Source: Promethearchaeota archaeon
GTDB lineage: Archaea > Asgardarchaeota > Lokiarchaeia > Sigyniarchaeales > SOKP01
Direction: 5' to 3'
Length of the DNA: 32,000 bases
Assembly (NCBI GenBank): GCA_030606485.1
Contig: JAUWGH010000001.1
Location: forward strand, 90,001 to 122,000
Shown here piece by piece: positions 1-22,170 of the stretch; position 1 is the first letter of the stretch; each line of letters starts with the position of its first letter. The position numbers and the translations under genes are program-made. The notes beneath the pieces are model-generated. The model did no database searches. It saw nothing but the letters and a program-made list of their open reading frames with translations, and was not told the origin of the DNA.

Positions 1-9
1 TTTAAAAAT

Positions 10-3000
10 TTGTTTTCTGAATTATTTTCAATTAATAAAATTTATGAAGAGAAACAAACTCTAAATAAAAGTTATATAATACCAATTTTAGAAGAAGGAC
101 TTTCAAAAAGTATATATTTATCTGCGTTACTTGTACGGAGCCAACCCATAGAGGTTTTAGAACGAGAATTTCAAAAATATTTAGACACAATGGATTTTAA
201 TATTCAATATGGATATAGACTAAATGAAGTTTTAAAATCTTATTATAATGGTTATGTCAATTTATTACTTTTTGAATCTGAACGATTTCATTTCACCGTA
301 CATATAAAATTTAATAAAAATCTAACTGATACATATAATCTTAGAGTGATTTTTACTTTTTGGTATGAAAATCTAAAAAAAAGAAATGATTTCGATTTAA
401 ATTATTTACATGGAATCTATGATGATTTCATATTAGGTCATAAAATATCAAATTCTCTTGAATCCATTGGTTATTCAAAGATTCAGTTAATCGACATTGA
501 TAATTATAACCCTCAGACATATGTAAGTCAAAAGCCAAAAAATTTCTGGGTTGAGGAGAGACCTTTTATGTGTATAACAATGATGATTGAATTGCTTAAT
601 GCGAATCCAATTAAATTAATTAATGATTTAGTTGAACATGTCTCAAGTGTAGAAAAGATTATTATTAATAATCGTGAAAAAACTTATGGAACATCCATAC
701 AATTCTTTAAGGAATTTTCAATTGAATTACAAAATTTTATTGCAAAGGGAAATGAATTATTTAGAATTGCGGTTGATTCGAGTGAAACAGTATCAGAAAG
801 AGGGATTCAAGCACAAAAAAAAGAAGACCTTTTAGAAGAGGAAAGTAAAACAAGAACATTAACACCACAAATAATAATTGAGTTATTTCAAAAAGCGTAT
901 GAACAGGATCTGAAAAAAAATGAATCCAGAGAGGATAGAGGGTTCCGCTCATTAAGTACACTTTATGAAGAATATGGGAAAAGTTACCATTTTTCACGAG
1001 CAACATTGTATAATTGCTTTAATAATTCAAAATTAGAATTATTATTAGAAAAAAAAGAAAGAAAAAAACAAGGTGGTGGTTTTAAATTCAGAATAAAAGA
1101 TAGAGAATTATATGAAGAGATTAATGAAGAAAATCTTGAAGATCAGTTTATGAAAGAGAAAATGGAAATTGAAAAAGCATTATATCATTATAATAAAGAA
1201 GAGCCTGATCTTACAATAAAAATTCTTAAAAAAGTCTTAAGATCTTCAAGTAAACAATTACAAAAGGATCATAATTTATTTTTGGGCGCAAAATTTTATT
1301 TGTCAAAATGTTATTACCAAAAAGAGACTTATCAGCAATCATATGAGCTATGTGAACAGATACTGAGGGAGGATGATTCTCTTATAGATGTAAAACATTT
1401 AAAAGTCAAATCTCTCTTTAAATTACGAAAATTTGATGAGATAAATAATCTTTTAAAATCTTATATAAATGAGATAGAAAAAATATTCAAAATTTATGAT
1501 TTTTATTATGAGAAACATAAAAAATTGATAATTGGAAAATTTACTCCTAGCTATGAATATGCGAAAGAATTTTTTAAAAAATTAAATGAAGCAGATGACT
1601 TAACCAAATTTGTCTTATTGATCAATAAAGCTGAGTTCGACAATCGAATACATTTTACCGGGCGGAGAAAAAAACTGACCTTCTATAATAATAATACGAT
1701 AATTTTTGAAAAATTATTTAGATTTCTGGCAGAATATCTAATAATAAATATTGAACTTCACCGAAGGAAATTTTTCAGTCTAATTTTGGAAAATGATTTG
1801 GAAAAAATTAGAAAATCATTATCCGAGTTTATTTATATGTTAAAAAGTGAAAGATATGATAATTTATTTGAAGATGACTATTTTTTATATTACCTATATT
1901 ACTTTAGAAATATCTTAAATATATATATCGGGGAATCCGAATTATTGCTATTTGACAAGGAGTTAAAAGATAAATTTCCTAATTTTAACTTTAGAAGATT
2001 ACCTATCGGTAGGTTTCCCAATGATCTTGCCGAAATCAGCAAATTTATAAACAAAGTAGGAAGTTATTATAGGTTTGAAAGATTACATTATTTCGATTTT
2101 CCTGATTTAGATTTTGATTTTCAGATAAGTTTTAGAGATCCTGAATTAATTATTGAGTTAAGACATATTGAAGCGAATAAAAAGGAAGGAATAAAGGCCA
2201 TTGAACATCTTATTCAACATGTAAGTACCGAATTAGAAAATGAAGAACTAATTAATAGTAATGACATTGAATTACTAAATACGAGATGGTGGAAGTATAG
2301 CTTTTCTTCTTTATATGTAGCACCAACTAAATTCCTAAAATTAATTGAAGTGGCCAAAAATCTTTGTAAACAATATAACATAAGTGATTTTATTAACCAG
2401 TTTAGTAATATATATAAAAATCTTGAACAAAAAGTAAAAAATTTGAATCAATTTAGAGCAAAAGGAAAAAGATTGATATTAAATAGGCTATTTGAATTAT
2501 TATCACTCAAGTTTTCCCTTGTCAAGGAAGAAGAATTTACATTAAACTTTAATACTATTCCTAAAGGTGTTAAAAAAGAAGATTTCTTCTATGATACTGT
2601 GATACCTGAAATTGAGACTACTATTCGAAATTATCAAGAGAAGAGATTTAAATTGACTATCAATTTACCTAGTAAATATTTTACTCAAAATATTCCAAAA
2701 CACTTGAAAACATTCAATTGGAAGTCTTCAGATGGATTATACAATTCATTAACCTTTGAGAATGTTTCAGACAAAAATTTATTAATAAAACCTGCATGTA
2801 TTTGTGGGATTTATGGAGATGAACTCTTTAAAAATAATTTAGACTCTTTACTTTACTACATTACTAGACTTCTGGAATCCAATTCAAATGAGATGATAAT
2901 TGAATTAAGAAGATCTAAAAATAGAAAATCTTTTGAGGATTTTTTACAACAGTTTCCAGAAGAATTGAAAAATAATTATTTTTCATTTGATATTGAAGAA

Positions 3001-3045
3001 TTATCAGAACCTAATAGGGTTAAAGTATTAGTAAGAAAATTATAA
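10..3045 (+). CDS. Large hypothetical protein with central TPR-like repeats and a possible HTH; 5' end probably outside the window
   Basis: 1011-aa ORF whose frame is open back to position 1. TPR-like helices (IEKALYHYNKEEPDLTIKILKKVL...AKFYLSKCYYQKETYQQSYELCEQIL) and an HTH-like segment (SLSTLYEEYGKSYHFSRATLYNCF). Confidence 0.7.
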   Translation: MFSELFSINKIYEEKQTLNKSYIIPILEEGLSKSIYLSALLVRSQPIEVLEREFQKYLDTMDFNIQYGYRLNEVLKSYYNGYVNLLLFESERFHFTVHIKFNKNLTDTYNLRVIFTFWYENLKKRNDFDLNYLHGIYDDFILGHKISNSLESIGYSKIQLIDIDNYNPQTYVSQKPKNFWVEERPFMCITMMIELLNANPIKLINDLVEHVSSVEKIIINNREKTYGTSIQFFKEFSIELQNFIAKGNELFRIAVDSSETVSERGIQAQKKEDLLEEESKTRTLTPQIIIELFQKAYEQDLKKNESREDRGFRSLSTLYEEYGKSYHFSRATLYNCFNNSKLELLLEKKERKKQGGGFKFRIKDRELYEEINEENLEDQFMKEKMEIEKALYHYNKEEPDLTIKILKKVLRSSSKQLQKDHNLFLGAKFYLSKCYYQKETYQQSYELCEQILREDDSLIDVKHLKVKSLFKLRKFDEINNLLKSYINEIEKIFKIYDFYYEKHKKLIIGKFTPSYEYAKEFFKKLNEADDLTKFVLLINKAEFDNRIHFTGRRKKLTFYNNNTIIFEKLFRFLAEYLIINIELHRRKFFSLILENDLEKIRKSLSEFIYMLKSERYDNLFEDDYFLYYLYYFRNILNIYIGESELLLFDKELKDKFPNFNFRRLPIGRFPNDLAEISKFINKVGSYYRFERLHYFDFPDLDFDFQISFRDPELIIELRHIEANKKEGIKAIEHLIQHVSTELENEELINSNDIELLNTRWWKYSFSSLYVAPTKFLKLIEVAKNLCKQYNISDFINQFSNIYKNLEQKVKNLNQFRAKGKRLILNRLFELLSLKFSLVKEEEFTLNFNTIPKGVKKEDFFYDTVIPEIETTIRNYQEKRFKLTINLPSKYFTQNIPKHLKTFNWKSSDGLYNSLTFENVSDKNLLIKPACICGIYGDELFKNNLDSLLYYITRLLESNSNEMIIELRRSKNRKSFEDFLQQFPEELKNNYFSFDIEELSEPNRVKVLVRKL

Positions 3046-3127
3046 AAAATTCTAAATACATGTATTAAGTATTATTATAAAAATGAAAAGATAAGATCTT
3101 TAAGAATTATTAGAATTGAATTAGTAT

Positions 3128-4144
3128 ATGACAAGTGAAAAAGAATATTTGAACTTGCCGAAGAGAAAAAAAGAAATGATTCGGGAATTCGAAAGCTTGT
3201 TTGGTATTAAGCTCTCTAGAGAGTCAAGAGGATTCGATAAATGGGTTATAGAACGGCATATGTTGTTCGAGATTTGGTATTCGAACAAGACAGGTTATTC
3301 GAAAATAAAAAATGAACTCATGAAATTTTACGAAGAAACAGAACATAAGATATCAATAAGATCCTATGATAAACTCACCAAACAGTATATGAAATGGAAA
3401 TCGAAACATATTCCGAGATTTATTGAAAAAATGAGCGAAGATTTCGAGAAATTCGTAAAAAAAATCTTTCTCGATTATTTAAAATATCCTCCTAAAAATA
3501 TTAAACAAATTCTTAAATCACCCGAGTGGGAAATGGTCTTTTGGGAGGACTACACTCATACTCACATTGACAATTTTAAGGAGTGGTATATGGAATGGGT
3601 AAAAAAAAAGATGCCCATCAAGCGAGTTGGCGGTGAGGCTATTGTTGAATATCGTCCTACTAAATTAATAATTGATAATTCCGTTTTTGAAGATTATAGC
3701 AAATCCATCAAAAAAATCGGATATGTGGGGGAAGAATATGTGTTCTACGAAATACTTCCAAGAGAGCTGGAAAAAAATTACCCCAATTGCGACATAAAAG
3801 TGGAAGAAAATATATTGCATGTGTTAATTGACGGAGAATTAAAGGTTAAAATTGTCTGGAACAATAAATTTCGAGAATCCGGATTATCGTTCGATTTAAA
3901 AATGGATATTAATGGAAACGAATATTTCATAGAGGTTAAGGCAACTAAGTCTAACGACACTAATTTTACAATGAGCCTTGACGAGTTTAATCTTGTTAAA
4001 GAGAAAAAGGACAAATACATTCTTTATTTAGTGAACAACCTCGGCACAGCCAACCAAAGTTATTATCGATTCGAAAATTTCTTTAAGCATTACGAAGAAG
4101 GATATCTCGAAAAGCGCGATATAAGCTTTCGAATAAAGAGATAA
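3128..4144 (+). CDS. DUF3883 (NO VEIN C-terminal-like) PD-(D/E)xK nuclease domain protein
   Basis: C-terminal motifs typical of DUF3883: IGYVGEEYVF, ESGLSFDL, YFIEVKAT, FTMSLDEF, YILYLV. Confidence 0.8.
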   Translation: MTSEKEYLNLPKRKKEMIREFESLFGIKLSRESRGFDKWVIERHMLFEIWYSNKTGYSKIKNELMKFYEETEHKISIRSYDKLTKQYMKWKSKHIPRFIEKMSEDFEKFVKKIFLDYLKYPPKNIKQILKSPEWEMVFWEDYTHTHIDNFKEWYMEWVKKKMPIKRVGGEAIVEYRPTKLIIDNSVFEDYSKSIKKIGYVGEEYVFYEILPRELEKNYPNCDIKVEENILHVLIDGELKVKIVWNNKFRESGLSFDLKMDINGNEYFIEVKATKSNDTNFTMSLDEFNLVKEKKDKYILYLVNNLGTANQSYYRFENFFKHYEEGYLEKRDISFRIKR

Positions 4145-4240
4145 ACTAAGATATTAAACGTACATATGGAAAATATTAAAATATATTGATAATTTTAATA
4201 ATGAAACAAGAATTGCTCTAAAAATAAATAATAAAAATTT

Positions 4241-6121
4241 CTAAATCCTTTTTGAAATGAAAGGATACTTCTTTAAAGCACTTAGCGGAATAATTTTTAC
4301 TGCTTCATCTTCAAATAAATCTCTAGTCAAGGATTCTTCAAAAGTAGTTATTATTAATTGCTTGATTAAGCCTACCTCATGTATTCTTTTTAAATATTCA
4401 ATTATTTGAGCTCTATTTTCAACATCAAGGTGTTCAAGAGGTTCATCCATTATCACGAAATTTAGGTTTGAAAAATGATGCATTATTAGAGTTTTTGTTA
4501 TTATCGTTAGGATTGTCTTCTCTCCGCCACTTAACCCTTCAAAACCTATTTCTCCTTGATCATTTTTAAGAATAGGATTCAATTTTTCATCGAAAGAAAC
4601 AAAACGGTCTTGATCGTTAAATAATTTACGCCAAATTTCCGTGATTTCTTGCGTTAATGGATGCAAATAATCAAGTTTAACCTTATATAATATTCTTCCT
4701 ATTACTTCTTGTAAGATATCGATTAAATACAGGCTGTATTTTATGTTTTGTTTCTTATCTTGAATATAAGAAGGATCTAAATCTCTTTTTTTAGCTTCTT
4801 TTCTTGCCATTTTATATATTTTATCATTAATTTCATCGATTTCATTTGTAAGATCATATTTTTTTTTTAAATTCACTTGGATTTGGTATTTTATTTCATC
4901 GAAATGCTCTTTCATTACTTTATATTTTTTGATATTTACTTTCCAATCAGGTAAATATTCTTGGATTTTATTGAACAGATAATCTTTTCTATTTAATTCA
5001 TCTTCAATATCATTTTGTTCATTTTTTAAATCACTTGTTTGCGATTTGATTTTATCAAAATTAGATTTTAAATTTCTAAAAAGATCAGCTTTCTCTCTAT
5101 AAATTTCTTCATATTCATTCGATTTAAATGTCTTATTGCAGATGGGGCAAGGTTGTTGGTTTATATCCATATCGTAATATATTTTTTCTAAATCTTTCAA
5201 TACTCCAAAAATTTTATCTAGTATTCTTAATTCTTTATCAAGTTCTTCTTTTTTAAAGTCTAATTTTTGAATTTTCTTTAGGGATTCTTCCCTCTTCTTT
5301 TTTAATTTAACAAGGTCAAGGCCAAGTTGAGTATTAATATTTAAAATATCTACATCAAAAACTTTCAAGTTAAGAATTGTACGAAACGCATCTTCCAAAT
5401 CTTCAAATTTCTTTATTTTAATACTTAAGGAATTATATTCTCTCTTTAAGTTAGATAAGATTTTTTCTACTTTGATTAATTCTCTAGATTTTTCATCCTT
5501 CTTTTGACTAAAAATGGAGATTCTTTCTGTTGGAACAGTTTCTAAAGTATCTGTTATTAGGTCTTCGATTAATATATCCAATTTCTTTCCCTCTTTTCTA
5601 TAGAACGCTTGTAGCTCCTTAATATCCACGTTAAATTCCTTCAATTGTTGGATCCCTATTAAACCTTCAATATACTCTTTGAAATTGAATTTTCTTCTTG
5701 GATATGAAAAACCTCTAAAAATATCCCCTTCACCAAAATAAACCATTCTCTTTAAAAAAACTCTTTTAGTGTGAAATAGGCTTAAAATTTTATTTTCAAT
5801 ATCTGATTTTTTATGATACACTTCGAATTGAGTAAAAAGAGAATGTTTTGACGATTTTTCATCAAATTTTCTTTCGATGCTTAATTTTTCACTATTATGA
5901 ATCATCTCCAATCGTATGAGAGTTGGTTCAGAAGCCCCTATTCGTCTCACTTTATTGAGAGAGCTTCTTCTAAGATCTCCTGTAATAGCATAATAAATTG
6001 CTTCTAATAATGAAGTCTTTCCAATAGCATTTGGACCAATTATGAAATTTAAACCTGACTTAAATTTGAAATTTAAATTTTCATGTAATTTCCAATTCCT
6101 AATCATAATACTTTCTAACAT
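4241..6121 (-). CDS. Rad50/SbcC/SMC-like ABC ATPase with coiled coil and zinc hook
   Basis: Walker A GPNAIGKTS, signature LSGGE, Walker B/D-loop VIMDEPLEHLD, central CPIC zinc hook (5138-5149) and long coiled coils. ATG at 6121 preferred; the ORF extends to TTG at 6130. No Mre11 gene is adjacent. Confidence 0.88.
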   Translation of the reverse strand: MLESIMIRNWKLHENLNFKFKSGLNFIIGPNAIGKTSLLEAIYYAITGDLRRSSLNKVRRIGASEPTLIRLEMIHNSEKLSIERKFDEKSSKHSLFTQFEVYHKKSDIENKILSLFHTKRVFLKRMVYFGEGDIFRGFSYPRRKFNFKEYIEGLIGIQQLKEFNVDIKELQAFYRKEGKKLDILIEDLITDTLETVPTERISIFSQKKDEKSRELIKVEKILSNLKREYNSLSIKIKKFEDLEDAFRTILNLKVFDVDILNINTQLGLDLVKLKKKREESLKKIQKLDFKKEELDKELRILDKIFGVLKDLEKIYYDMDINQQPCPICNKTFKSNEYEEIYREKADLFRNLKSNFDKIKSQTSDLKNEQNDIEDELNRKDYLFNKIQEYLPDWKVNIKKYKVMKEHFDEIKYQIQVNLKKKYDLTNEIDEINDKIYKMARKEAKKRDLDPSYIQDKKQNIKYSLYLIDILQEVIGRILYKVKLDYLHPLTQEITEIWRKLFNDQDRFVSFDEKLNPILKNDQGEIGFEGLSGGEKTILTIITKTLIMHHFSNLNFVIMDEPLEHLDVENRAQIIEYLKRIHEVGLIKQLIITTFEESLTRDLFEDEAVKIIPLSALKKYPFISKRI

Positions 6122-6130
6122 AATAATCAA

Positions 6131-6868
6131 TCAAAAAGTTTTTAATCCTAAATTATCTAAAAAATCTCTAAATTCTTTTTTCCTATCCTTATCTGATTCT
6201 AGATATTTTTCAAAAACAGTAATTAATTTTTTAATTTTAATATCATCTAATTTAGACAATAAGTCCTTTTTCTCCGCTCCTAGTCGTCTTGATTCCTCAA
6301 TGAGTATAATATCTTTTAAGTATTTTTCAAAACTATTAATTATATCAGATATTTTAAAGTCATGAAACATTATTTTTGGAAAGTTATAACACTTTTCAGA
6401 AGTCAGAGTATCAAGTAAATTATCTAATTTTTTAAATTTATCTTGGATAAATTCCTTGAAATTAGAAAAATCTATAAAGCCTGAATAAAGATCATCACTT
6501 CGTAAAAGCAGAGAATGTAAATAATCATCATTGAAAATAATAAGGATACCGTCTATTCTCGGACTTTTTACAAAAATCTTGAAATACATCTTTAGATCTT
6601 TATGAGATAGTTCGATAGGTTTTTTATTTATCAAAACCACAGAATACATTTTATCTTTAATTATAATGAGAAAATTTATATAATCTAAAGAATATCTATC
6701 TGTTCTTAAATTTATTACTTTTGGTTTAATTTCCAACTTATGTATTTTTTCACTGAATTTATCAAAAATTTCCAAAAATCTTATATAAAAATCGATTAAA
6801 TCTGATAATAACCCACTTTCCTTAATTTCCATACGTCTATCTATTTCTGAAAATTCATTATCAAACAC
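6131..6868 (-). CDS. Hypothetical protein, possibly a degenerate restriction-endonuclease-like fold; middle gene of the PIN/ATPase operon
   Basis: 245-aa ORF with GTG start and upstream GAGGGG RBS. It overlaps the PIN gene by 8 bp and abuts the ATPase ORF. The helix/strand pattern (DYINFLIII, YSVVLIN, DGILIIFN) resembles the PD-(D/E)xK core without a clear ExK. Confidence 0.65.
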   Translation of the reverse strand: MFDNEFSEIDRRMEIKESGLLSDLIDFYIRFLEIFDKFSEKIHKLEIKPKVINLRTDRYSLDYINFLIIIKDKMYSVVLINKKPIELSHKDLKMYFKIFVKSPRIDGILIIFNDDYLHSLLLRSDDLYSGFIDFSNFKEFIQDKFKKLDNLLDTLTSEKCYNFPKIMFHDFKISDIINSFEKYLKDIILIEESRRLGAEKKDLLSKLDDIKIKKLITVFEKYLESDKDRKKEFRDFLDNLGLKTF

Positions 6869-7685
6869 TAATATTCCCCTCTTTTTTTGATTTAAGAATT
6901 ATATAATAGGCAATGTCAGAAGCAGAAGAATTACTTAATCGAACTTTTGCTTGTAGTGTTTCAACATTCCTGACTTCTCCTACAAATCTATTTTGCTCTG
7001 TTTCATAGAATTTAATTAATTCTCTAATAAAATGAAACTTACAATCGTTATAAATAGGTAATAAAAAAGAGATATAACCTTTAGAAATAGTATTTTTTGT
7101 CTTCAAGACATTTCCTTCATTACTAATAAATTGAGATAAACGATTTATTTTTTTTTCTAAAACAATCTTTAATTTTATATCTTCAGTTACAATTATACTT
7201 TTAAATTTTCTATTTGTAGATTCTCTTAATCCTAATAAAATTAAAGATAAATCATTTTTACTTGGCGTTTTCCTTCGAAATATAGGATATACGATAGATT
7301 TTATTTCATTTAAATCAATTTGATTTAATTGGATTATTTCAAAGTTTTTTTCAATTAATCTTTTAACTTTTTTTATATAATTGATTTTTGGATGATTTTT
7401 ATAATTTCTAAAAAAAACCGAATTATAAACTAGACTAACATCTCTACCACCTCTTAATTTGTTGGTTGTATTGAGCTCCCCATCATAAAATAATTTAGAT
7501 ACATTTATCTTACCATTAATAGAACATTTTGTAACCCAAGAAAGGAATTGTCCAAATTGAGTTAAAAAATTACTGTCAGTATTATTATTTCTTTTAAAAA
7601 TAAAATCCATTATATAGATGAGAAAATTACAATCACAAATAATAAATCCGTAATTTTCACATTTCTTACAATCTGGCATTTCCAT
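6861..7685 (-). CDS. PIN-domain-like ribonuclease
   Basis: PIN-type acidic motifs FIICDCNFL (D/N), PSKNDLSLILL (S..D) and IIVTEDIKL (T.D); N-terminal CxxC. Confidence 0.7.
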   Translation of the reverse strand: MEMPDCKKCENYGFIICDCNFLIYIMDFIFKRNNNTDSNFLTQFGQFLSWVTKCSINGKINVSKLFYDGELNTTNKLRGGRDVSLVYNSVFFRNYKNHPKINYIKKVKRLIEKNFEIIQLNQIDLNEIKSIVYPIFRRKTPSKNDLSLILLGLRESTNRKFKSIIVTEDIKLKIVLEKKINRLSQFISNEGNVLKTKNTISKGYISFLLPIYNDCKFHFIRELIKFYETEQNRFVGEVRNVETLQAKVRLSNSSASDIAYYIILKSKKEGNISV

Positions 7686-7772
7686 AATAATAAATTAATT
7701 TTAATTTAATTAAAGAAATATATAAAATTTTGTCGATTACTGTAAAAAACAAGACATTTTTTCTATTAAAAT

Positions 7773-8102
7773 TTATTGCAAATTGATTTTTAAATCTCTA
7801 TAATAAGAATCTGACTTAATTATTTTTGAAATAATTTTTTTATGATCCATTTTAAATAGTTCCAAGAACTTTTTTGATAATTTCTGCTTAATTTTATTGA
7901 ACATAGCTTAATAGTAGTAAATATCTCTTACTGCGCTACAAAAATGGGTATCAAAAACACCTTCTAACGCTTGTGCGTTTAAAGGTTCTAATTTTAATAT
8001 ATCCCCTCCGCTTCTTTTAAGAATCTCTCTTATAATTGCGGAAATTTTCTTCCATCCTAATTTTTAACATGCTAAATATCTTCGCTGTCCCACAATTAAT
8101 TC
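7773..8102 (-). pseudogene. ParB/Srx-domain pseudogene fragment
   Basis: Minus-strand translation ELIVGQRRYLAC*KLGWKKISAIIRE matches the ParB GxxR box. In-frame TAA codons at 8064-8066 and 7908-7910; 5' part missing. Confidence 0.75.
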
Positions 8103-8672
8103 GTTTTAATTCGTTCTATTCCATCTAAATTATTATCGACGCAATTTTGAAAAAATAAATTTCCACTTTCGTAGCCAATTGATTTTCCAATCATATCATT
8201 ATAAATTCTTAAAATAATGCTGGTCATAAAAAGACAACTTATTATCAACTGAGAAAATTGGTATTAAACCGGATTCAAAATTTGGATTTTCATATTTTGT
8301 ATTCCATTTATATATTGATATTACCATTTTTCTCTAATAAAACTTATGGTAGATGTCTGTTGGAAATAGAAAAGAAATTTAAATATTTCAATTATACAAA
8401 TAAGATTTATATATTAAAGAAAACAAGACAAGTCTAAAGGAAATCAAATTTTAAGATCTTTTGTTATTGTTTAATTTAAGAAAATTTTGTATAAATACAA
8501 TAATTTAAAAATATTTATAACGTATTAAATAATTTCACAAAACTACATAATGATTATAATTGTAAATTGTTTTTAGTGCTTAATAATTAAGGATCAAAAA
8601 ACTTAGTATTTACTTATTTTTTAATCTAATAAGACTGATAAAAGAAAATAAACCCATTTCAAAAAAGGAAAT

Positions 8673-8822
8673 TTATTCTGGGGTAATTTCATCTAAATCT
8701 GATAAATCCAACCCTGAATCCATCTCGGAATGAACCTCCGCTAAAAATTCATTCAATAATTCTTTTAACTCCTCCCCACTCTGATAAATTAGGGAAACCC
8801 ACTTATATAAAAATTCAAATCC
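8673..8822 (-). pseudogene. Orphan 3' gene fragment with acidic tail
   Basis: A 49-codon open frame with no upstream start (GFEFLYKWVSLIYQSGEELKELLNEFLAEVHSEMDSGLDLSDLDEITPE*), more GC-rich than its flanks. Confidence 0.35.
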
Positions 8823-9143
8823 TTACTTTATTTAATCTCTATTTTTAAAAAGAGTTATATAAAAAATCCTTTTAATAATAGTCTTAAAATTTGTCTAAAG
8901 TTTAAATATTAATAACTTAATAAAGTTGTTATTTAATTAAATAGAAGTTTGTAAAAAAATAGATATTTGATTCAATCGTTTTAAAAGAGTTTAAAATATC
9001 AAGTCTTTTTAAGGAAAATAACACTGATTTAAAAGAATTATACAATTTTATGAGCAATTATATGACACCAAGACCAGATAAGATAAATGAAATTGAGAGT
9101 AAAAGAGATTTTATCGTAAAAATTAAGGATGAGATAAGGAGAA

Positions 9144-9425
9144 ATGTCTGATTTACTAGAAATGATTGATAATATGTTAAATAAGAAAAAAGAAACATAT
9201 CAAGAAATTCAACTGAAAAAAAATGATCTTCAGGAAGAGATCGAAATTCCAAATGCAAAAAAGGAATCTAAATATGAAAGAAACGACTTAATATTACCCG
9301 ATTCCGATACACTAAGAAAATTTTGTAGAGATTTAGGATTTAGAGGTAAAAATCTTAGGCTTGTTAATAGAGGACATACCAAATTAATTATTGAATATTT
9401 AATGAAAATACTTTTATATCTTTAG
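9144..9425 (+). CDS. Hypothetical protein
   Basis: 93-aa ORF with AAGGAG RBS directly upstream of the ATG. Confidence 0.5.
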   Translation: MSDLLEMIDNMLNKKKETYQEIQLKKNDLQEEIEIPNAKKESKYERNDLILPDSDTLRKFCRDLGFRGKNLRLVNRGHTKLIIEYLMKILLYL

Positions 9426-9505
9426 AAAAAGCTAATTATCCAAGATTAATAGAATAACTCTTTAATAAAAATATTTAAAAATATGAAATTGGTGGAAATT
9501 AATTA

Positions 9506-17421: not shown

Positions 17422-18171
17422 TTACCATTGAGCTTGTGGAGAGAATTCAACATCCTTATCTTTATACTTGTTTTTTGCCATTGCCTTATATTTGGTATAT
17501 CTGATTTTTTTCAAATTAAAATTAATCAAATTCAGCATGTGAGTCAATCCCATTCCCGAATATTTTACTACGTAATAGAAACCCATTGAGAGCATCGACA
17601 ACACAACCAAAAAATCGAACATAAAAATTTCATAATAAATTATTATAAGGTAGGAAATTGCAAGCGCTATAATAAGTACAATCGTTTGTATGAGTGCATA
17701 TTTTCTAAACAATTTCAGGGATGTGAAAATATATTGTATATCGGCTCCGCTGGGACTTATCTGCGTAAGAATTGAAATTGCAACATAAATTAGGATTGCC
17801 GCGATTGTATAATTAACACCGGGGCTTGCGATATAATGAATAATAAATCCAATGATATAAGTTCCAACAAACAACGGTGCAAAACCGATTAACAACGCCT
17901 GTAGAAAACTTGGTTGCTGAACAGGCTTAATAAACGCTGTAAGACAGCCATCTTCATCCCTATCTGGGAGGATTCTCGCTTTCTCTACAGGTACGTGTGT
18001 TAAAAGACACATCAAGTAATGGCTTAATTCATGCACCACAATCCCGAGAAAGAAAAATGTCATAAAAATCTTTTGCGAAGTCGGGCTTCTCGAGAAAAAA
18101 GTTAGCACACAAGAGGCAATAAATGATAAAATCCAAATGCAGAGAAATATCCAAATATACTCGATTATCAT
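17422..18171 (-). CDS. Membrane zinc metalloprotease (M50-like/DUF3267-type, HExxH)
   Basis: GIVVHELSHYL, LIGFAPL and SPSGAD motifs with multiple hydrophobic TM segments. Confidence 0.75.
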   Translation of the reverse strand: MIIEYIWIFLCIWILSFIASCVLTFFSRSPTSQKIFMTFFFLGIVVHELSHYLMCLLTHVPVEKARILPDRDEDGCLTAFIKPVQQPSFLQALLIGFAPLFVGTYIIGFIIHYIASPGVNYTIAAILIYVAISILTQISPSGADIQYIFTSLKLFRKYALIQTIVLIIALAISYLIIIYYEIFMFDFLVVLSMLSMGFYYVVKYSGMGLTHMLNLINFNLKKIRYTKYKAMAKNKYKDKDVEFSPQAQW

Positions 18172-18288: not shown

Positions 18289-21200
18289 ATGTTGGAATCA
18301 GCAAGATCAACTAGCGATAATAGTGAGCAATTTAAAAAACCAGATAACGACGAGTCCCAGAAATATAGTGCTAATGATATACTTAATATCTGGAGGGATC
18401 GTCCAGCAAAGAGAGATATTAAATACTGGACAAATGCCATTAAAGTTCTATTCATCGGCTTTATTTGGGGTGCATTATTTTCAATATCATATTTTAGCAG
18501 TGGGCTACTAATAACTTCTTTTTTGTTTTCAAGCATAATGGTAATCTCCTTTATCATAGTCTCTTTTGGGAACATATTCTTTTTTTATGAGAAGGTGCGT
18601 TTTAGGGGAGGAAAAAGAATCGATTTATTTGAGGATTTAAATTTTAGAATTAGAGATAAGAATTCGGACACGCTTTTTATTTTCAATAGGAAGGGATACG
18701 GGACAACAGGCTTAAAAATATTTAAAATAGACATCATTCCTGAGACGGTTCATGGCAATGTAAAGCGATTTTTAAGGTCCTTAGATAGATTGGGAGTTCC
18801 ATATACTTATCAAATTATTCAAACTTCTAATATTCAATTGATTGAGAATTCTGCAGAATTATTCGATAAAGAAGAAAGAAAGAAGGCGAGATCTCAATTG
18901 TTAAATTCACAGAATTCTTTAATAACATCGTTATATTTATCAACATCATACTGGGGTAAGACTCTATATTTCTCAGCTACTTTAGATAATATTCAGAAGC
19001 AGTTAGATAGTTATTCAAAAGTGATATTTTCTTCTTTTACCTCGACTTTCCCGCATCATCACTTATCAGAATTAAAGGGTTTGGATTTAATTGACGCCCT
19101 TTACGCACTCTTTTTTAAGACTAAAGTAGCGCCAAAAAATAAACAAGAAAGTATTGAGGAATTGAAGAATAATAGACTCATGATTTCTATGATAGTTAGA
19201 AGTATTTATCTAATGATTTTTTCAGTTCTCAATGTATTCATTATTCAAAGTTTAGGCGTTCCTTTTAGTTATAATATTTTAATAACCCTAACCTGTAATT
19301 TTCTTATTATATACATCTTCTGGAAAGATTTACTTAGTCCCTTGGCAGATAAGTTCATTTTTAGAGATTTTTACAGACTCAATCTTTTTACGGATTTTAA
19401 ATTTTTTATGCGAACAGGAATTCCCGATACTTTATTTGTTTGGAATCAGAAATTGAATTTATTATTAGGCACCAAGATGCTTGCTGTAAAGCAAATTAGG
19501 TCGAATGGTTATAATGAACCTGACCAATTTTTTCGGGGAATTGCTCCCTTACAGTTATCATTTTCATATACAACGATTCAATCGCCCTTCTCTTGTCTAG
19601 ATCTTAAACATGGGTTTATGAAACATCTTAATGAACCTAATCAACGGTATCTAATTAAATATGCTGGAAATAAGGGTCGTTTAATAGATTGGCTTTCAAT
19701 GAGGGCAAGTATTTGGTGGTTTATGTTCTTTATTTCCGCGAATTCATACAAATTTACTTCTATCATCAATAATAATGTAATTGACAGTTTAGAAGAAGAA
19801 TTACAGGATAAGTTTGATGAGATTGATTTAGTTTTTCGGACATACTTTAGTAATTATCCACGTGTTGTATTAAAAGACCGTAAATTATTATCCGGACTAA
19901 AAGTGATTCTCTTAAAAAATAAGTTTTTCAGGCGAGAAGGGACATATTTGCCCTATACACTGATTCAAGGAGTAGTTCTATCTAACATTAATAAGATCAT
20001 GGATGAATTAAAGAAAAGTATAAAGACTCAAGTCGCTGCTGAATTTAACACGCCTTTAAATTTACAAAATCAAATCATCGTAGGAAATACGATTAATACC
20101 GAATTTTGTAGGGAAGAGATTTCATTTGGTTTTAAACTTGATCAAGTTAGAAACCTTCTCATAAGTGGAGGGAAAAATTCTCAAAGAGATAATGTCGCTA
20201 TGAATATTATCTCGGAATTAGTGAAAAATAATGTTCCTTCAATTATATTTGATTTCAAAGGAAATTACAGTAAAATAATTAATTCATTTTCAAAAACTCA
20301 ATTTAAAAACGACTTCCACTATTTCAAATTGGGACAATCTTTTCAAATTTCCTTATTAAAGTCAGATATAAAGAATGATATTGATAATACTAAATATTTA
20401 GATTATGTTTTTGAATGCCTTGGAATGGTGTTTAAATTAGATGATAAGGCACTTTTAGATTTAAAAAAGGAAGTTAAATCGCTAGATTTGGAAGTAAAGT
20501 CGCTAGAACTCGATGATGAATTAAAAAAGGCTTATGAGAAGAACCGTAAATTAGAACAATCAATGTCAAAGCTTACAGAATTTTTAGATCTGACTCGATC
20601 AACCATTAGTGCCTTGGGATTACCGGAAGGAACAATAACTTCAGAAGATTTTCTAAAAGATGGTAAAACGGTAATTATTGATTTGAGTTTATTAAGACCG
20701 CCTTATAATCTATTTGGGATGTTTGTAATTATTTCAAAAATAATTAGATATATTGAAGAATTTGAAGAATTCCAGCCAAAAATGTTGATTATGCCCAATA
20801 TTGAATATTTTTTTGATAAATATTATTTAGATAGGTGGATAAAATCTCCTATTATCGATTTATTTCTCGATCCATTAGCCGAAAAGGGGTTCGGGTTTTT
20901 ATTCTTGGTTAATGAAATAAATAAACTCCACCCAGCCGTTTATAATTATTTAGAAAATTTCATTGCACTAAAGACAGTCAATAGTTATGATTTTCAAGTA
21001 TTAAAGAATTTGTTTAATCTTCAGGAAATTCAAGGGCAGGGCTATTATACCAATAAGAGAAAAAACACTTATCAAATAGATTTCTTAAAGCAGTTAAGAG
21101 AAGATATGGCCATAGTAAAGCGAGATGATTACGACCAACCATTTCCTGTTAAATTTAGGTTAGATAAGATAAAGAATTTAACTCCTTTACAGTATGAAGA

Positions 21201-22170
21201 GCTCATCTCTTATATGAGACAATTCGGCTATGATTTCCAGAAAACTGAAAAACAAATAGAGCAGTCCCTCAAAAAAACCTTTTTTCAAAAAGATTTTGAA
21301 GGATATTATTATTTAATTGATGAGATAAAAAATTTTCTCCTAACTTTAAAAGTAACAGATACTATTGCCGGTATAGATGAGCATAAACTCAAAGGATCAC
21401 TCTTTAAATTTATACATAATAAATTAACTTCTAAAAACTATAAAAAAAAAGATATTATTAAGATAAGAAATGAATTATTTAATCTTCTTCTGAGTCATCG
21501 ATATATAATCGAAAGTCATCCCAGAACTGCAGGTAATACTGAAAGTCTCCGGACAAGTTATCGAGTTGGTCCTCAATATGATAAGGCATTGGGGGATGAA
21601 CCAAAATCTATGCAGCTATTTAATATGGATGTTAATATGGAGCCTATTGAACTTTACAATAATGATTTCGAGAGCGTTACGCCTAAAAAGAAAGAAGTCA
21701 AAAAGTATTGGAATCCTTCAGATAAGAGTCAAGAAAAAATAAATGAGTATGAAATTGAAATTAACAGTGAGCACTTAAATTCTAGGGAAAATATACCTTG
21801 GAAAAAATTAGTTGGTGGTTTTTTAATACCTGAAACGGCTCGAGTCGGTACAAAAATAAACAATAAGAATTATAGAGAAGCAATTCTTTCCGTTAAAACA
21901 ATAATTCCAGAATTCTTATATAAATTATATAATCGAGATTTTAAGATTAGGAGTAATAAGAATATTGCTATTGAGGATTTTGAAAAATCAATTGAATTTA
22001 TTATTAATTCCAAGATTATTCCATTTGATCGACAAGAATTAGAGAAAATTCTAAAAAAAATTAATGTCGAAAAGTATAAACCAAACGATTTAGAGAATAT
22101 CGCAAATGAAAATTACAAAATCCTTTATAATTTCTCAGCAAAAATTTTGATGGCTTTAACTGAAATATAA
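18289..22170 (+). CDS. Membrane-anchored HerA/FtsK/VirB4-like protein with degenerate ATPase motifs
   Basis: Two TM hairpins each followed by a repeated alpha/beta domain. NLLISGGKNSQRD...IIFDFKGNY marks a DUF87-like start with a broken Walker A. Also VIIDLSLL, GFGFLFLVN and a C-terminal wHTH-like region. Confidence 0.7.
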   Translation: MLESARSTSDNSEQFKKPDNDESQKYSANDILNIWRDRPAKRDIKYWTNAIKVLFIGFIWGALFSISYFSSGLLITSFLFSSIMVISFIIVSFGNIFFFYEKVRFRGGKRIDLFEDLNFRIRDKNSDTLFIFNRKGYGTTGLKIFKIDIIPETVHGNVKRFLRSLDRLGVPYTYQIIQTSNIQLIENSAELFDKEERKKARSQLLNSQNSLITSLYLSTSYWGKTLYFSATLDNIQKQLDSYSKVIFSSFTSTFPHHHLSELKGLDLIDALYALFFKTKVAPKNKQESIEELKNNRLMISMIVRSIYLMIFSVLNVFIIQSLGVPFSYNILITLTCNFLIIYIFWKDLLSPLADKFIFRDFYRLNLFTDFKFFMRTGIPDTLFVWNQKLNLLLGTKMLAVKQIRSNGYNEPDQFFRGIAPLQLSFSYTTIQSPFSCLDLKHGFMKHLNEPNQRYLIKYAGNKGRLIDWLSMRASIWWFMFFISANSYKFTSIINNNVIDSLEEELQDKFDEIDLVFRTYFSNYPRVVLKDRKLLSGLKVILLKNKFFRREGTYLPYTLIQGVVLSNINKIMDELKKSIKTQVAAEFNTPLNLQNQIIVGNTINTEFCREEISFGFKLDQVRNLLISGGKNSQRDNVAMNIISELVKNNVPSIIFDFKGNYSKIINSFSKTQFKNDFHYFKLGQSFQISLLKSDIKNDIDNTKYLDYVFECLGMVFKLDDKALLDLKKEVKSLDLEVKSLELDDELKKAYEKNRKLEQSMSKLTEFLDLTRSTISALGLPEGTITSEDFLKDGKTVIIDLSLLRPPYNLFGMFVIISKIIRYIEEFEEFQPKMLIMPNIEYFFDKYYLDRWIKSPIIDLFLDPLAEKGFGFLFLVNEINKLHPAVYNYLENFIALKTVNSYDFQVLKNLFNLQEIQGQGYYTNKRKNTYQIDFLKQLREDMAIVKRDDYDQPFPVKFRLDKIKNLTPLQYEELISYMRQFGYDFQKTEKQIEQSLKKTFFQKDFEGYYYLIDEIKNFLLTLKVTDTIAGIDEHKLKGSLFKFIHNKLTSKNYKKKDIIKIRNELFNLLLSHRYIIESHPRTAGNTESLRTSYRVGPQYDKALGDEPKSMQLFNMDVNMEPIELYNNDFESVTPKKKEVKKYWNPSDKSQEKINEYEIEINSEHLNSRENIPWKKLVGGFLIPETARVGTKINNKNYREAILSVKTIIPEFLYKLYNRDFKIRSNKNIAIEDFEKSIEFIINSKIIPFDRQELEKILKKINVEKYKPNDLENIANENYKILYNFSAKILMALTEI

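Follow-up and report, generated by a model that had tools for sequence, protein, structure and literature searches.

What is a Rad50-like ATPase doing beside a PIN-like nuclease in an archaeal genome that holds its Mre11-Rad50 repair genes elsewhere: does it serve repair, immunity or the mobile DNA that carries it? The question is raised by three genes, here called A, C and B, at positions 4241-7685 of a 32-kb stretch of Promethearchaeota archaeon DNA (hereafter the window, which is contig C10:90001-122000 of a 3.75-Mb, 13-contig genome). An initial annotation, made from the letters alone, had proposed a candidate Lamassu-like defence system at this position. Lamassu is a model for how SMC/Rad50 proteins are turned from chromosome maintenance to immune sensing. 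Such systems consist of LmuA (an N-terminal effector followed by a C-terminal domain, CTD), LmuC (the middle component) and LmuB (a Rad50-like protein, often with a zinc hook and of about 600 amino acids (aa) in the short type), and monomeric LmuA is kept sequestered by LmuB and LmuC until the system senses DNA ends (PMC12663957; 10.1101/2025.03.14.643221). The three genes of the window are a real, conserved and rare module. We consider it probable that they constitute a single mobile cassette built like a short Lamassu immune system; most likely, the cassette is an immune module of Lamassu architecture whose effector and middle component are both new.

The three-gene module and where it occurs

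The listing of open reading frames (ORFs) fills window 4241-7685 with three minus-strand genes in the order A, C, B. This is the tightly coupled arrangement that the initial annotation had described, and every point of that description that could be checked proved accurate. The genes, and a possible promoter element, are as follows.

6861..7685, minus strand: gene A, 274 aa; PIN-like nuclease, candidate effector and LmuA analogue
6131..6868, minus strand: gene C, 245 aa; middle component without a known family, corresponding to LmuC in position
4241..6121, minus strand: gene B, 626 aa; Rad50/SMC-like ABC ATPase, LmuB analogue and candidate sensor
7719..7726, minus strand: TTTATATA, candidate archaeal TATA box read from the sequence, about 37 nt upstream of A's ATG

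Alignment with relatives bears on where each gene starts. Relatives of A begin at its second methionine (position 7679). Gene C starts with GTG, at a residue where its relatives carry a methionine start, and overlaps A by 8 bp. The ORF of B is listed from a TTG at 6130; all of its relatives begin at the ATG at 6121, which lies 9 nt past the stop codon of C. The putative TATA box is a weak candidate, being located in a region of about 21% GC.

The three genes also co-occur well beyond this genome, whereas the initial annotation had named a lack of co-occurrence elsewhere as a refutation. The A-C-B order, with its tight spacing, is found in at least 14 loci (metagenome or MAG contigs L023-L027, L029/L030, L058 and L059; genomes G160, G182, G232 and G249, and G184 twice), and for each of the three proteins the identity to the copy in the window drops as low as 20-28%. 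Across 11 loci the pairwise identities of A, C and B rise and fall together (Spearman 0.76-0.84, a figure inflated by shared ancestry), a pattern that fits inheritance of A-C-B as a unit. A 63-aa ORF upstream of A in L023/L024 had no counterpart upstream of A in the other loci and was therefore rejected as a part of the cassette.

The distribution of the module is patchy. A survey of 400 genomes of the phylum, comprising 135 of the window's own family and 265 others, detected full-length A in six of the 135 (the genome of the window included) and in none of the 265. A profile locus search of genome contigs with the close A alignment yielded no confirmed relative, and the contigs of four metagenome studies matched window 1-14000 in short pieces only, with joints whose sides measured about 20 nt, matches that do not bear on whether the cassette is present or absent there. 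Flanking genes differ at every cassette locus. One of the two copies in G184 (L057 6743-7647, G184:C24) has an A gene broken by three in-frame TGA codons and open C and B genes; this copy may represent decay of a costly effector.

Nuclease, ATPase and adaptor

Protein A has no match in Pfam, PADLOC or NCBIfam. A word-based search with A recovered only four close relatives, and an exhaustive profile search recovered 42 proteins; the family alignment holds 41 sequences. Residues D145, D169 and C215 are invariant in this alignment, D18, C54, E70, L148 and T167 are present in at least 90% of the sequences, and the family motifs are xDTN, DLSL and IxTxD. Comparison by hhalign of the A profile with a 21-sequence family of Nob1-type PIN_6 proteins, whose identity as PIN_6 was checked on one member, gave a match at 97.3% probability (E 2.3e-11 over 113 columns) in which all four acidic residues of A (D18, E70, D145 and D169) align to PIN_6 motifs. 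These 21 sequences belong to a set of roughly 180-aa proteins that the A profile picks up, with values near 1e-7 per genome, in many genomes of Asgard archaea; the one member that was scanned is PF17146 PIN_6 (1.8e-22). Single members of the A family also match PIN_4, NYN and PIN weakly in Pfam scans, and the acidic quartet is kept in the cassette copies compared. The positions concerned are listed here.

7632..7634, minus strand: Asp18 of A, end of strand 1, D-T/C-N motif; first PIN acidic residue, aligns to the DT of PIN_6; codon checked
7476..7478, minus strand: Glu70 of A; second acidic residue, aligns to the Glu of PIN_6; codon checked
7251..7253, minus strand: Asp145 of A, DLSL motif; third acidic residue, aligns to D..LlALaL of PIN_6
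7179..7187, minus strand: Thr167-x-Asp169 of A, within IVTED; PIN 'TxD' motif with the fourth acidic residue, aligns to iTdD of PIN_6
7659..7670, minus strand: Cys6-x-x-Cys9 of A; with Cys54 (7524-7526) and Cys215 (7041-7043), a possible metal site

Structural comparison points in the same direction. The best rows of solved structures for the model of A, itself a poor one, are almost all PIN domains (Z 4.5-6.6), among them those of DIS3 (Z 6.6, root mean square deviation (rmsd) 5.1, 162 residues aligned), Pyrococcus 1y82 (Z 5.5, rmsd 4.3, 142 aligned) and VapCs, HARP and Nmd4 (Z 4.5-4.8). Shape neighbours of the model in the Atlas are PIN_8/PIN_12, PIN_4, DUF3368 and PIN_6, at template modelling (TM) scores of 0.37-0.51, and a Foldseek search of the PDB returned nothing at E up to 0.001. 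On the strength of the profile-profile match to PIN_6, the conserved and aligned acidic quartet and the PIN structure rows, A is thus a predicted PIN-like nuclease with an intact acidic site, which agrees with the label that it had been given initially. The PIN core extends over residues ~10-200 and is followed by a helical part (~204-267) that could dock in the manner of the LmuA C-terminal domain. Residues C6 and C9 occur in about 70% of the 41 sequences, and of the 11 cassette copies compared 10 retain them; the eleventh has gaps at these positions and its start is probably mis-set. Together with C54 and C215 they may form a metal site specific to the family.

A separate observation concerns a protein of about 665 aa without a Pfam match (L039 1321-3333; C2:114173-114487 in the genome of the window), which is conserved in most genomes of the family. 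Positions ~100-210 of the A-family profile match it at ~1e-6 to 1e-9 per genome, and it may hold an unrecognised PIN-like domain.

Protein B matches the Pfam families SMC_N (2.5e-17), AAA_15 and AAA_23 and, weakly, SbcC_Walker_B. The coiled coils and the CPIC hook that the initial annotation had reported for this 626-aa ABC ATPase are present, and its motifs are located as listed.

6014..6037, minus strand: Walker A GPNAIGKT of B (residues 29-36), conserved in the family
5729..5731, minus strand: Glu131 of B, in place of the Q-loop Gln found in the genome's own Rad50 (FVKQGE); E-G is invariant in 10 members
5138..5149, minus strand: zinc hook CPIC of B (residues 325-328), midway between the arms; aligns with the CPTC of the genome's own Rad50
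4442..4531, minus strand: signature SGGEK (531-535) and Walker B FVIMDE (555-560) of B, with the D-loop
4340..4342, minus strand: Phe594 of B, at the H-loop (His-switch) position; QLIITTFEESLT is invariant in 10 members, and the genome's own Rad50 has ITH

Residues C325, P326 and C328 of the hook and the head motifs are invariant in the 10-member alignment of B. The two arms, of about 150 residues each, are poor in Pro and Gly, rich in Lys, Glu and Leu, and show raised heptad contrast. Relative to the genome's own Rad50, the Q-loop Gln of B is replaced by Glu and the H-loop His by Phe, and both replacements are invariant among the 10 members. An ABC ATPase that lacks these two residues is expected to bind ATP, to engage its heads and to hydrolyse slowly. 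B is therefore probably a slow hydrolyser.

The affinities of B were examined with several models. The PADLOC LmuB model PDLC03859 matches B over its full length (E 7e-28), and for none of the 10 members of the B family does another PADLOC model score better (best 6.7e-32); over the whole genome it scores B at 95 bits and the true Rad50 at 60 bits. With a Rad50 model the preference is reversed: the scores of the genome's own Rad50 sum to about 160 bits, against about 99 for B. Equivalog models are not satisfied by B, which reaches 86 bits against a cutoff of 700 for Rad50 and 79.6 bits against a cutoff of 300 for the archaea-specific SMC-related protein (ASRP, NF045487). A word-based search with B returned cassette members only, and tblastn of B against plasmids returned a single weak match, a Mycobacterium AAA ATPase. 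We read B as a predicted Rad50-derived paralogue with LmuB-like features. Two other assignments were rejected: that to ASRP on its score, and that to Rad50 orthologues on the equivalog cutoff, the lack of Mre11 nearby, the loss of the Q- and H-loop residues and the presence of a true operon elsewhere.

This canonical operon (C10:802803-809153) encodes an Mre11-like phosphoesterase (424 aa), Rad50 (703 aa), HerA (585 aa) and a 387-aa gene product. Its Rad50 is unusually short, with a CPTC zinc hook and intact Q- and H-loops. The operon adjoins a B12-type ribonucleotide reductase gene. The genome also encodes three long SMC proteins. Its Mre11-Rad50-HerA operon and a histone-fold gene are in keeping with an archaeal host. 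The case that the initial annotation had named as a refutation, B being the only Rad50 orthologue of its genome, thus does not hold. That annotation had also seen no Mre11, NurA or HerA gene nearby, and there is none in the 32-kb window. Canonical Rad50 was also recovered from the cassette-bearing genomes G184 and G249; the query had no match in G160, G182 and G232 at E up to 1e-10, which does not imply absence.

Protein C sits between A and B at all loci compared, and 12 family members align over their whole length. None of the 12 matched a Pfam middle-component family (MC1-8) of the three-component ABC systems (ABC-3C) or the PADLOC LmuC model at E up to 5, no relatives of C were detected outside the cassette, and a profile search of the PDB with the C family gave nothing meaningful. 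Searches with a structure model of C found generic helical matches only in the Atlas and the PDB (TM up to 0.37, Z up to 7.3), and Foldseek against the PDB found nothing at E up to 0.001. C had been labelled as similar to restriction endonucleases (REases). What stands of this label is at most a weak hint of fold: a language-model neighbour at 0.90, for which the recognition value falls short of the usual threshold, is a cluster labelled 'restriction enzyme alpha subunit', with PDDEXK_4 in 19% of its members, and one C-family member matches the inactive-REase family NA-iREase2 at E 0.16. The catalytic part of the label does not stand. No acidic or Lys catalytic positions are conserved in the 12-member alignment, and C was rejected as an active restriction nuclease because the D...(D/E)xK residues are not conserved; it could still have an inactive fold of the REase type. 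We read C as a putative non-catalytic adaptor. Complex prediction for A with C gave a median of 0.33 versus 0.00 for the best control (partner predicted local distance difference test (pLDDT) score at least 58, contact agreement at least 47%), a weak result of a kind that is more often wrong than right unless the pairing is already likely.

Island context and competing explanations

GC content in the window ranges from 21 to 37%, and the cassette lies in a low-GC island that reaches from position 1 to about 22 kb; purine-biosynthesis genes follow from 23.8 kb. By DNA comparison the island is strain-specific. Four genomes of the same genus gave no match to window 1-14000 beyond a repeat, described below, and pieces of 31-142 bp. 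Besides candidate defence genes, described further on, the island holds ParB_N proteins and a DUF3800 protein, and elsewhere the cassette has Mrr, AbiTii, a CHAT protease and a D12 methylase among its neighbours. The neighbours of defence type speak for an immune role. The boundaries of the island are not marked in the window by a tRNA, an Rfam family or a meaningful flanking repeat.

In the mechanism that we infer for an immune module, the three proteins would form a complex in which B dimerises through its CPxC hook and senses DNA that is foreign or abnormal, for instance ends or intermediates of replication, C serves as an adaptor, and C and B together hold the PIN nuclease A inactive. DNA-dependent, ATP-driven engagement of the B heads would free or reposition A, and the freed A would cut nucleic acid, leading to growth arrest or to destruction of the invader. 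The output gated by the ATPase may be that of an RNase rather than a DNase; RNA appears somewhat more likely than DNA as the substrate because the nearest relatives of A are the Nob1, DIS3 and VapC-type PIN domains. A bolder version of this scheme, which we offer as a tentative possibility, is that the cassette contains a Rad50/SMC immune sensor that arose from archaeal Rad50, independent of or basal to bacterial LmuB, and that was coupled, by way of an unrelated adaptor, to a PIN effector that cuts RNA. If true, it would give the SMC-family defence systems their first RNase output, and only the archaeal lineage closest to eukaryotes would have it.

Several explanations compete with an immune function. 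The cassette could encode an accessory complex for DNA repair or replication intermediates, in which a Rad50 paralogue and a PIN/FEN-like nuclease that replaces Mre11 process host ends or flaps. By sequence, archaeal Rad50 heads come nearest to B, which retains the hook, the Walker A and B motifs and the signature, and the PIN-like superfamily includes 5' flap DNases. However, this genome already has Mre11-Rad50-HerA, the cassette is present in only 6 of 135 family genomes and absent from the four same-genus genomes, its contexts vary and one copy is pseudogenised, the Q- and H-loops of B are degenerate, and the nearest PIN relatives of A are RNA endonucleases; we regard a repair role as unlikely. 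A different proposal is that the module serves an integrated mobile element, as a toxin-antitoxin-like addiction module or for maintenance or competition, with C and B restraining a PIN toxin. In its favour, PIN domains are well known as toxins (VapC), and the cassette travels whole into differing contexts; there are ParB_N genes close by in the window, in L058 and in L059, a multi-copy repeat abuts the cassette, and the island is strain-specific and low in GC. Set against these features are the lack of an integrase, tRNA or flanking repeats in the window and a 626-aa zinc-hook ATPase that is far more elaborate than known antitoxins; moreover, such a proposal overlaps with defence, as many defence systems ride on mobile elements. 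A selfish module seems improbable to us. It is the distribution, the context and the separate repair operon that make these two explanations less likely. That the three ORFs are unrelated neighbours or mis-called, without a joint function, is hardly credible: A and C do lack a curated family match, but the tightly coupled order in at least 14 loci, the parallel divergence and the conserved motifs contradict it.

A number of results weigh against the reading of the cassette as a Lamassu-like immune module. Several neighbours at the other loci are ordinary genes, namely a Na/Ca exchanger, a subtilase and an RHS protein. The LmuB model PDLC03859 is poorly specific and matches all 14 control genomes, and when the PDB is searched with the B-family profile, archaeal Rad50 heads come up (E 3e-26) but no LmuB chain does. 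For these two reasons B may be an independent offshoot of Rad50 and not a member of the LmuB clade. Neither C nor the C-terminal part of A matches a Pfam ABC-3C middle-component or CTD family or the PADLOC LmuA and LmuC models: the 41 members of the A family contain no LmuA C-terminal domain family (CTD1-12) in Pfam at E up to 1, and A has no match to the PADLOC LmuA models, again at E up to 1. Finally, the AlphaFold2 (AF2) model of A is poor (pLDDT 54), and that of C, with a long N-terminal helix, a small beta core and a helical C-terminus, is weak (pLDDT 54).

Other contents of the island were recorded alongside the cassette. An ORF-free segment upstream of the cassette (window 8228-9021) is a multi-copy non-coding repeat, with copies in the same genome at C3:30275-30713 (92% over 439 bp) and C1:10447-10686 (87%) and as shorter pieces, and with several copies, at 71-96%, in the four same-genus genomes, where it is the only substantial match to window 1-14000. 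Convergent with the cassette, 3128-4144 encodes a 338-aa protein whose C-terminal NOV_C domain matches the C-terminus of PADLOC TmtA (3.6e-18). On the other side, 14848-15621 is PDC-M19B (1.8e-48) and 15525-16700 encodes a ParB_N - HTH_ParB - DUF488 fusion that matches PDC-M19A (7.9e-25), the two forming a PADLOC candidate defence pair. The island ORFs at 1-3045 (at least 1014 aa, open at the window start), 17422-18171 (249 aa) and 18289-22170 (1293 aa) match no significant Pfam or PADLOC family, a weak TPR-like match apart.

The genome also holds a second, conserved SMC-like module (L080 2574-7790; C2:339574-344790 in the genome of the window). It comprises a double histone-fold protein (156 aa), two unknown proteins of 273 aa, an AAA ATPase (239 aa), a 119-aa ORF and a 623-aa SMC-like ATPase without a Pfam match. 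A set of ORFs that resembles it in size adjoins the PIN cassette in L055 (9335-14544), and a partial set, judged in the same way, is present in L058 (8206-12479).

Comparison with known systems

We found no published description of the cassette. The main text of two Asgard defensome papers contains no Lamassu or SMC, and 'PIN' appears there only by chance inside other words. The initial annotation had recognised neither a PIN effector nor a middle gene of this type in any named system, a judgement with which the empty PADLOC and Pfam scans and the published effector lists agree.

In Mre11-Rad50/SbcCD, which repairs DNA ends, an ABC ATPase likewise carries a zinc hook and coiled-coil arms and controls the nuclease with which it is paired, a role that for B is predicted, and the nearest solved sequences to B are archaeal Rad50 heads. 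The cassette differs in having no Mre11 or SbcD phosphoesterase, and B differs in its shorter arms and in the loss of the Q-loop Gln and H-loop His. RloC, a single bacterial polypeptide in which a Rad50-like zinc-hook ATPase is fused to an anticodon nuclease, is similar in joining such an ATPase to an RNA-cutting output, which for the cassette is predicted; its fusion and its nuclease domain differ. HEC-03, a validated two-gene phage defence system of bacteria, pairs the ABC ATPase HEC-03A with the VapC-like PIN protein HEC-03B (10.1101/2024.01.29.577857). The pairing of an ABC-family ATPase with a separate PIN-domain protein is thus common to both, and HEC-03 is a precedent for such a pair in defence. 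It is made of two genes, however, lacks a middle component and has no zinc hook described for it. PADLOC gave no match to A at E up to 1, and the listed matches of B do not include HEC-03A.

The closest resemblance is to short type II Lamassu (LmuA-LmuC-LmuB; DdmABC; ABC-3C). The cassette has a like order of effector, middle component and ATPase, as had been proposed initially, with an 8-bp overlap and a 9-nt gap between its genes and with recurrence in at least 14 loci. B is likewise about 600 aa long, with a CxxC hook and an ATPase site predicted to be slow, and the patchy distribution and island context are common to both. Published archaeal Lamassu amount to a handful of cases in Euryarchaeota and Thaumarchaeota, none of them Asgard.

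There are differences as well. Published LmuA effectors are Cap4, Mrr, PDDEXK, HNH, Sir2, protease, hydrolase, lipase, FMO and SMEK, and PIN is not in the lists of these two papers (PMC12663957; 10.1101/2022.05.11.491447). The PIN-like candidate effector of the cassette thus lies outside those listed domains, while C matches neither MC1-8 nor LmuC and A carries no Pfam CTD family. Attenuation of B is predicted through the Q-loop and H-loop, whereas in bacterial LmuB a Walker B Glu-to-Gln variant has been reported (10.1101/2025.03.14.643221); the predicted effect is analogous. The profile of B reaches archaeal Rad50 and no solved LmuB, and the host is an Asgard archaeon.

We therefore say, by analogy, that the cassette would work like Lamassu in its layout and type of ATPase, and we do not file it as a member of that group because its effector is off the published list and its middle component and effector tail are unrelated in sequence. 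If the cassette is a defence system, it indicates either that Lamassu is deeply modular or that Rad50 was recruited to immunity by convergence, and it offers a compact three-protein system in which to study how a DNA-sensing ATPase gates a PIN nuclease. It departs from the Lamassu model in four ways, namely a PIN-like effector, an unrelated adaptor, an ATPase closer to archaeal Rad50 and the predicted crippling of that ATPase at the Q- and H-loops.

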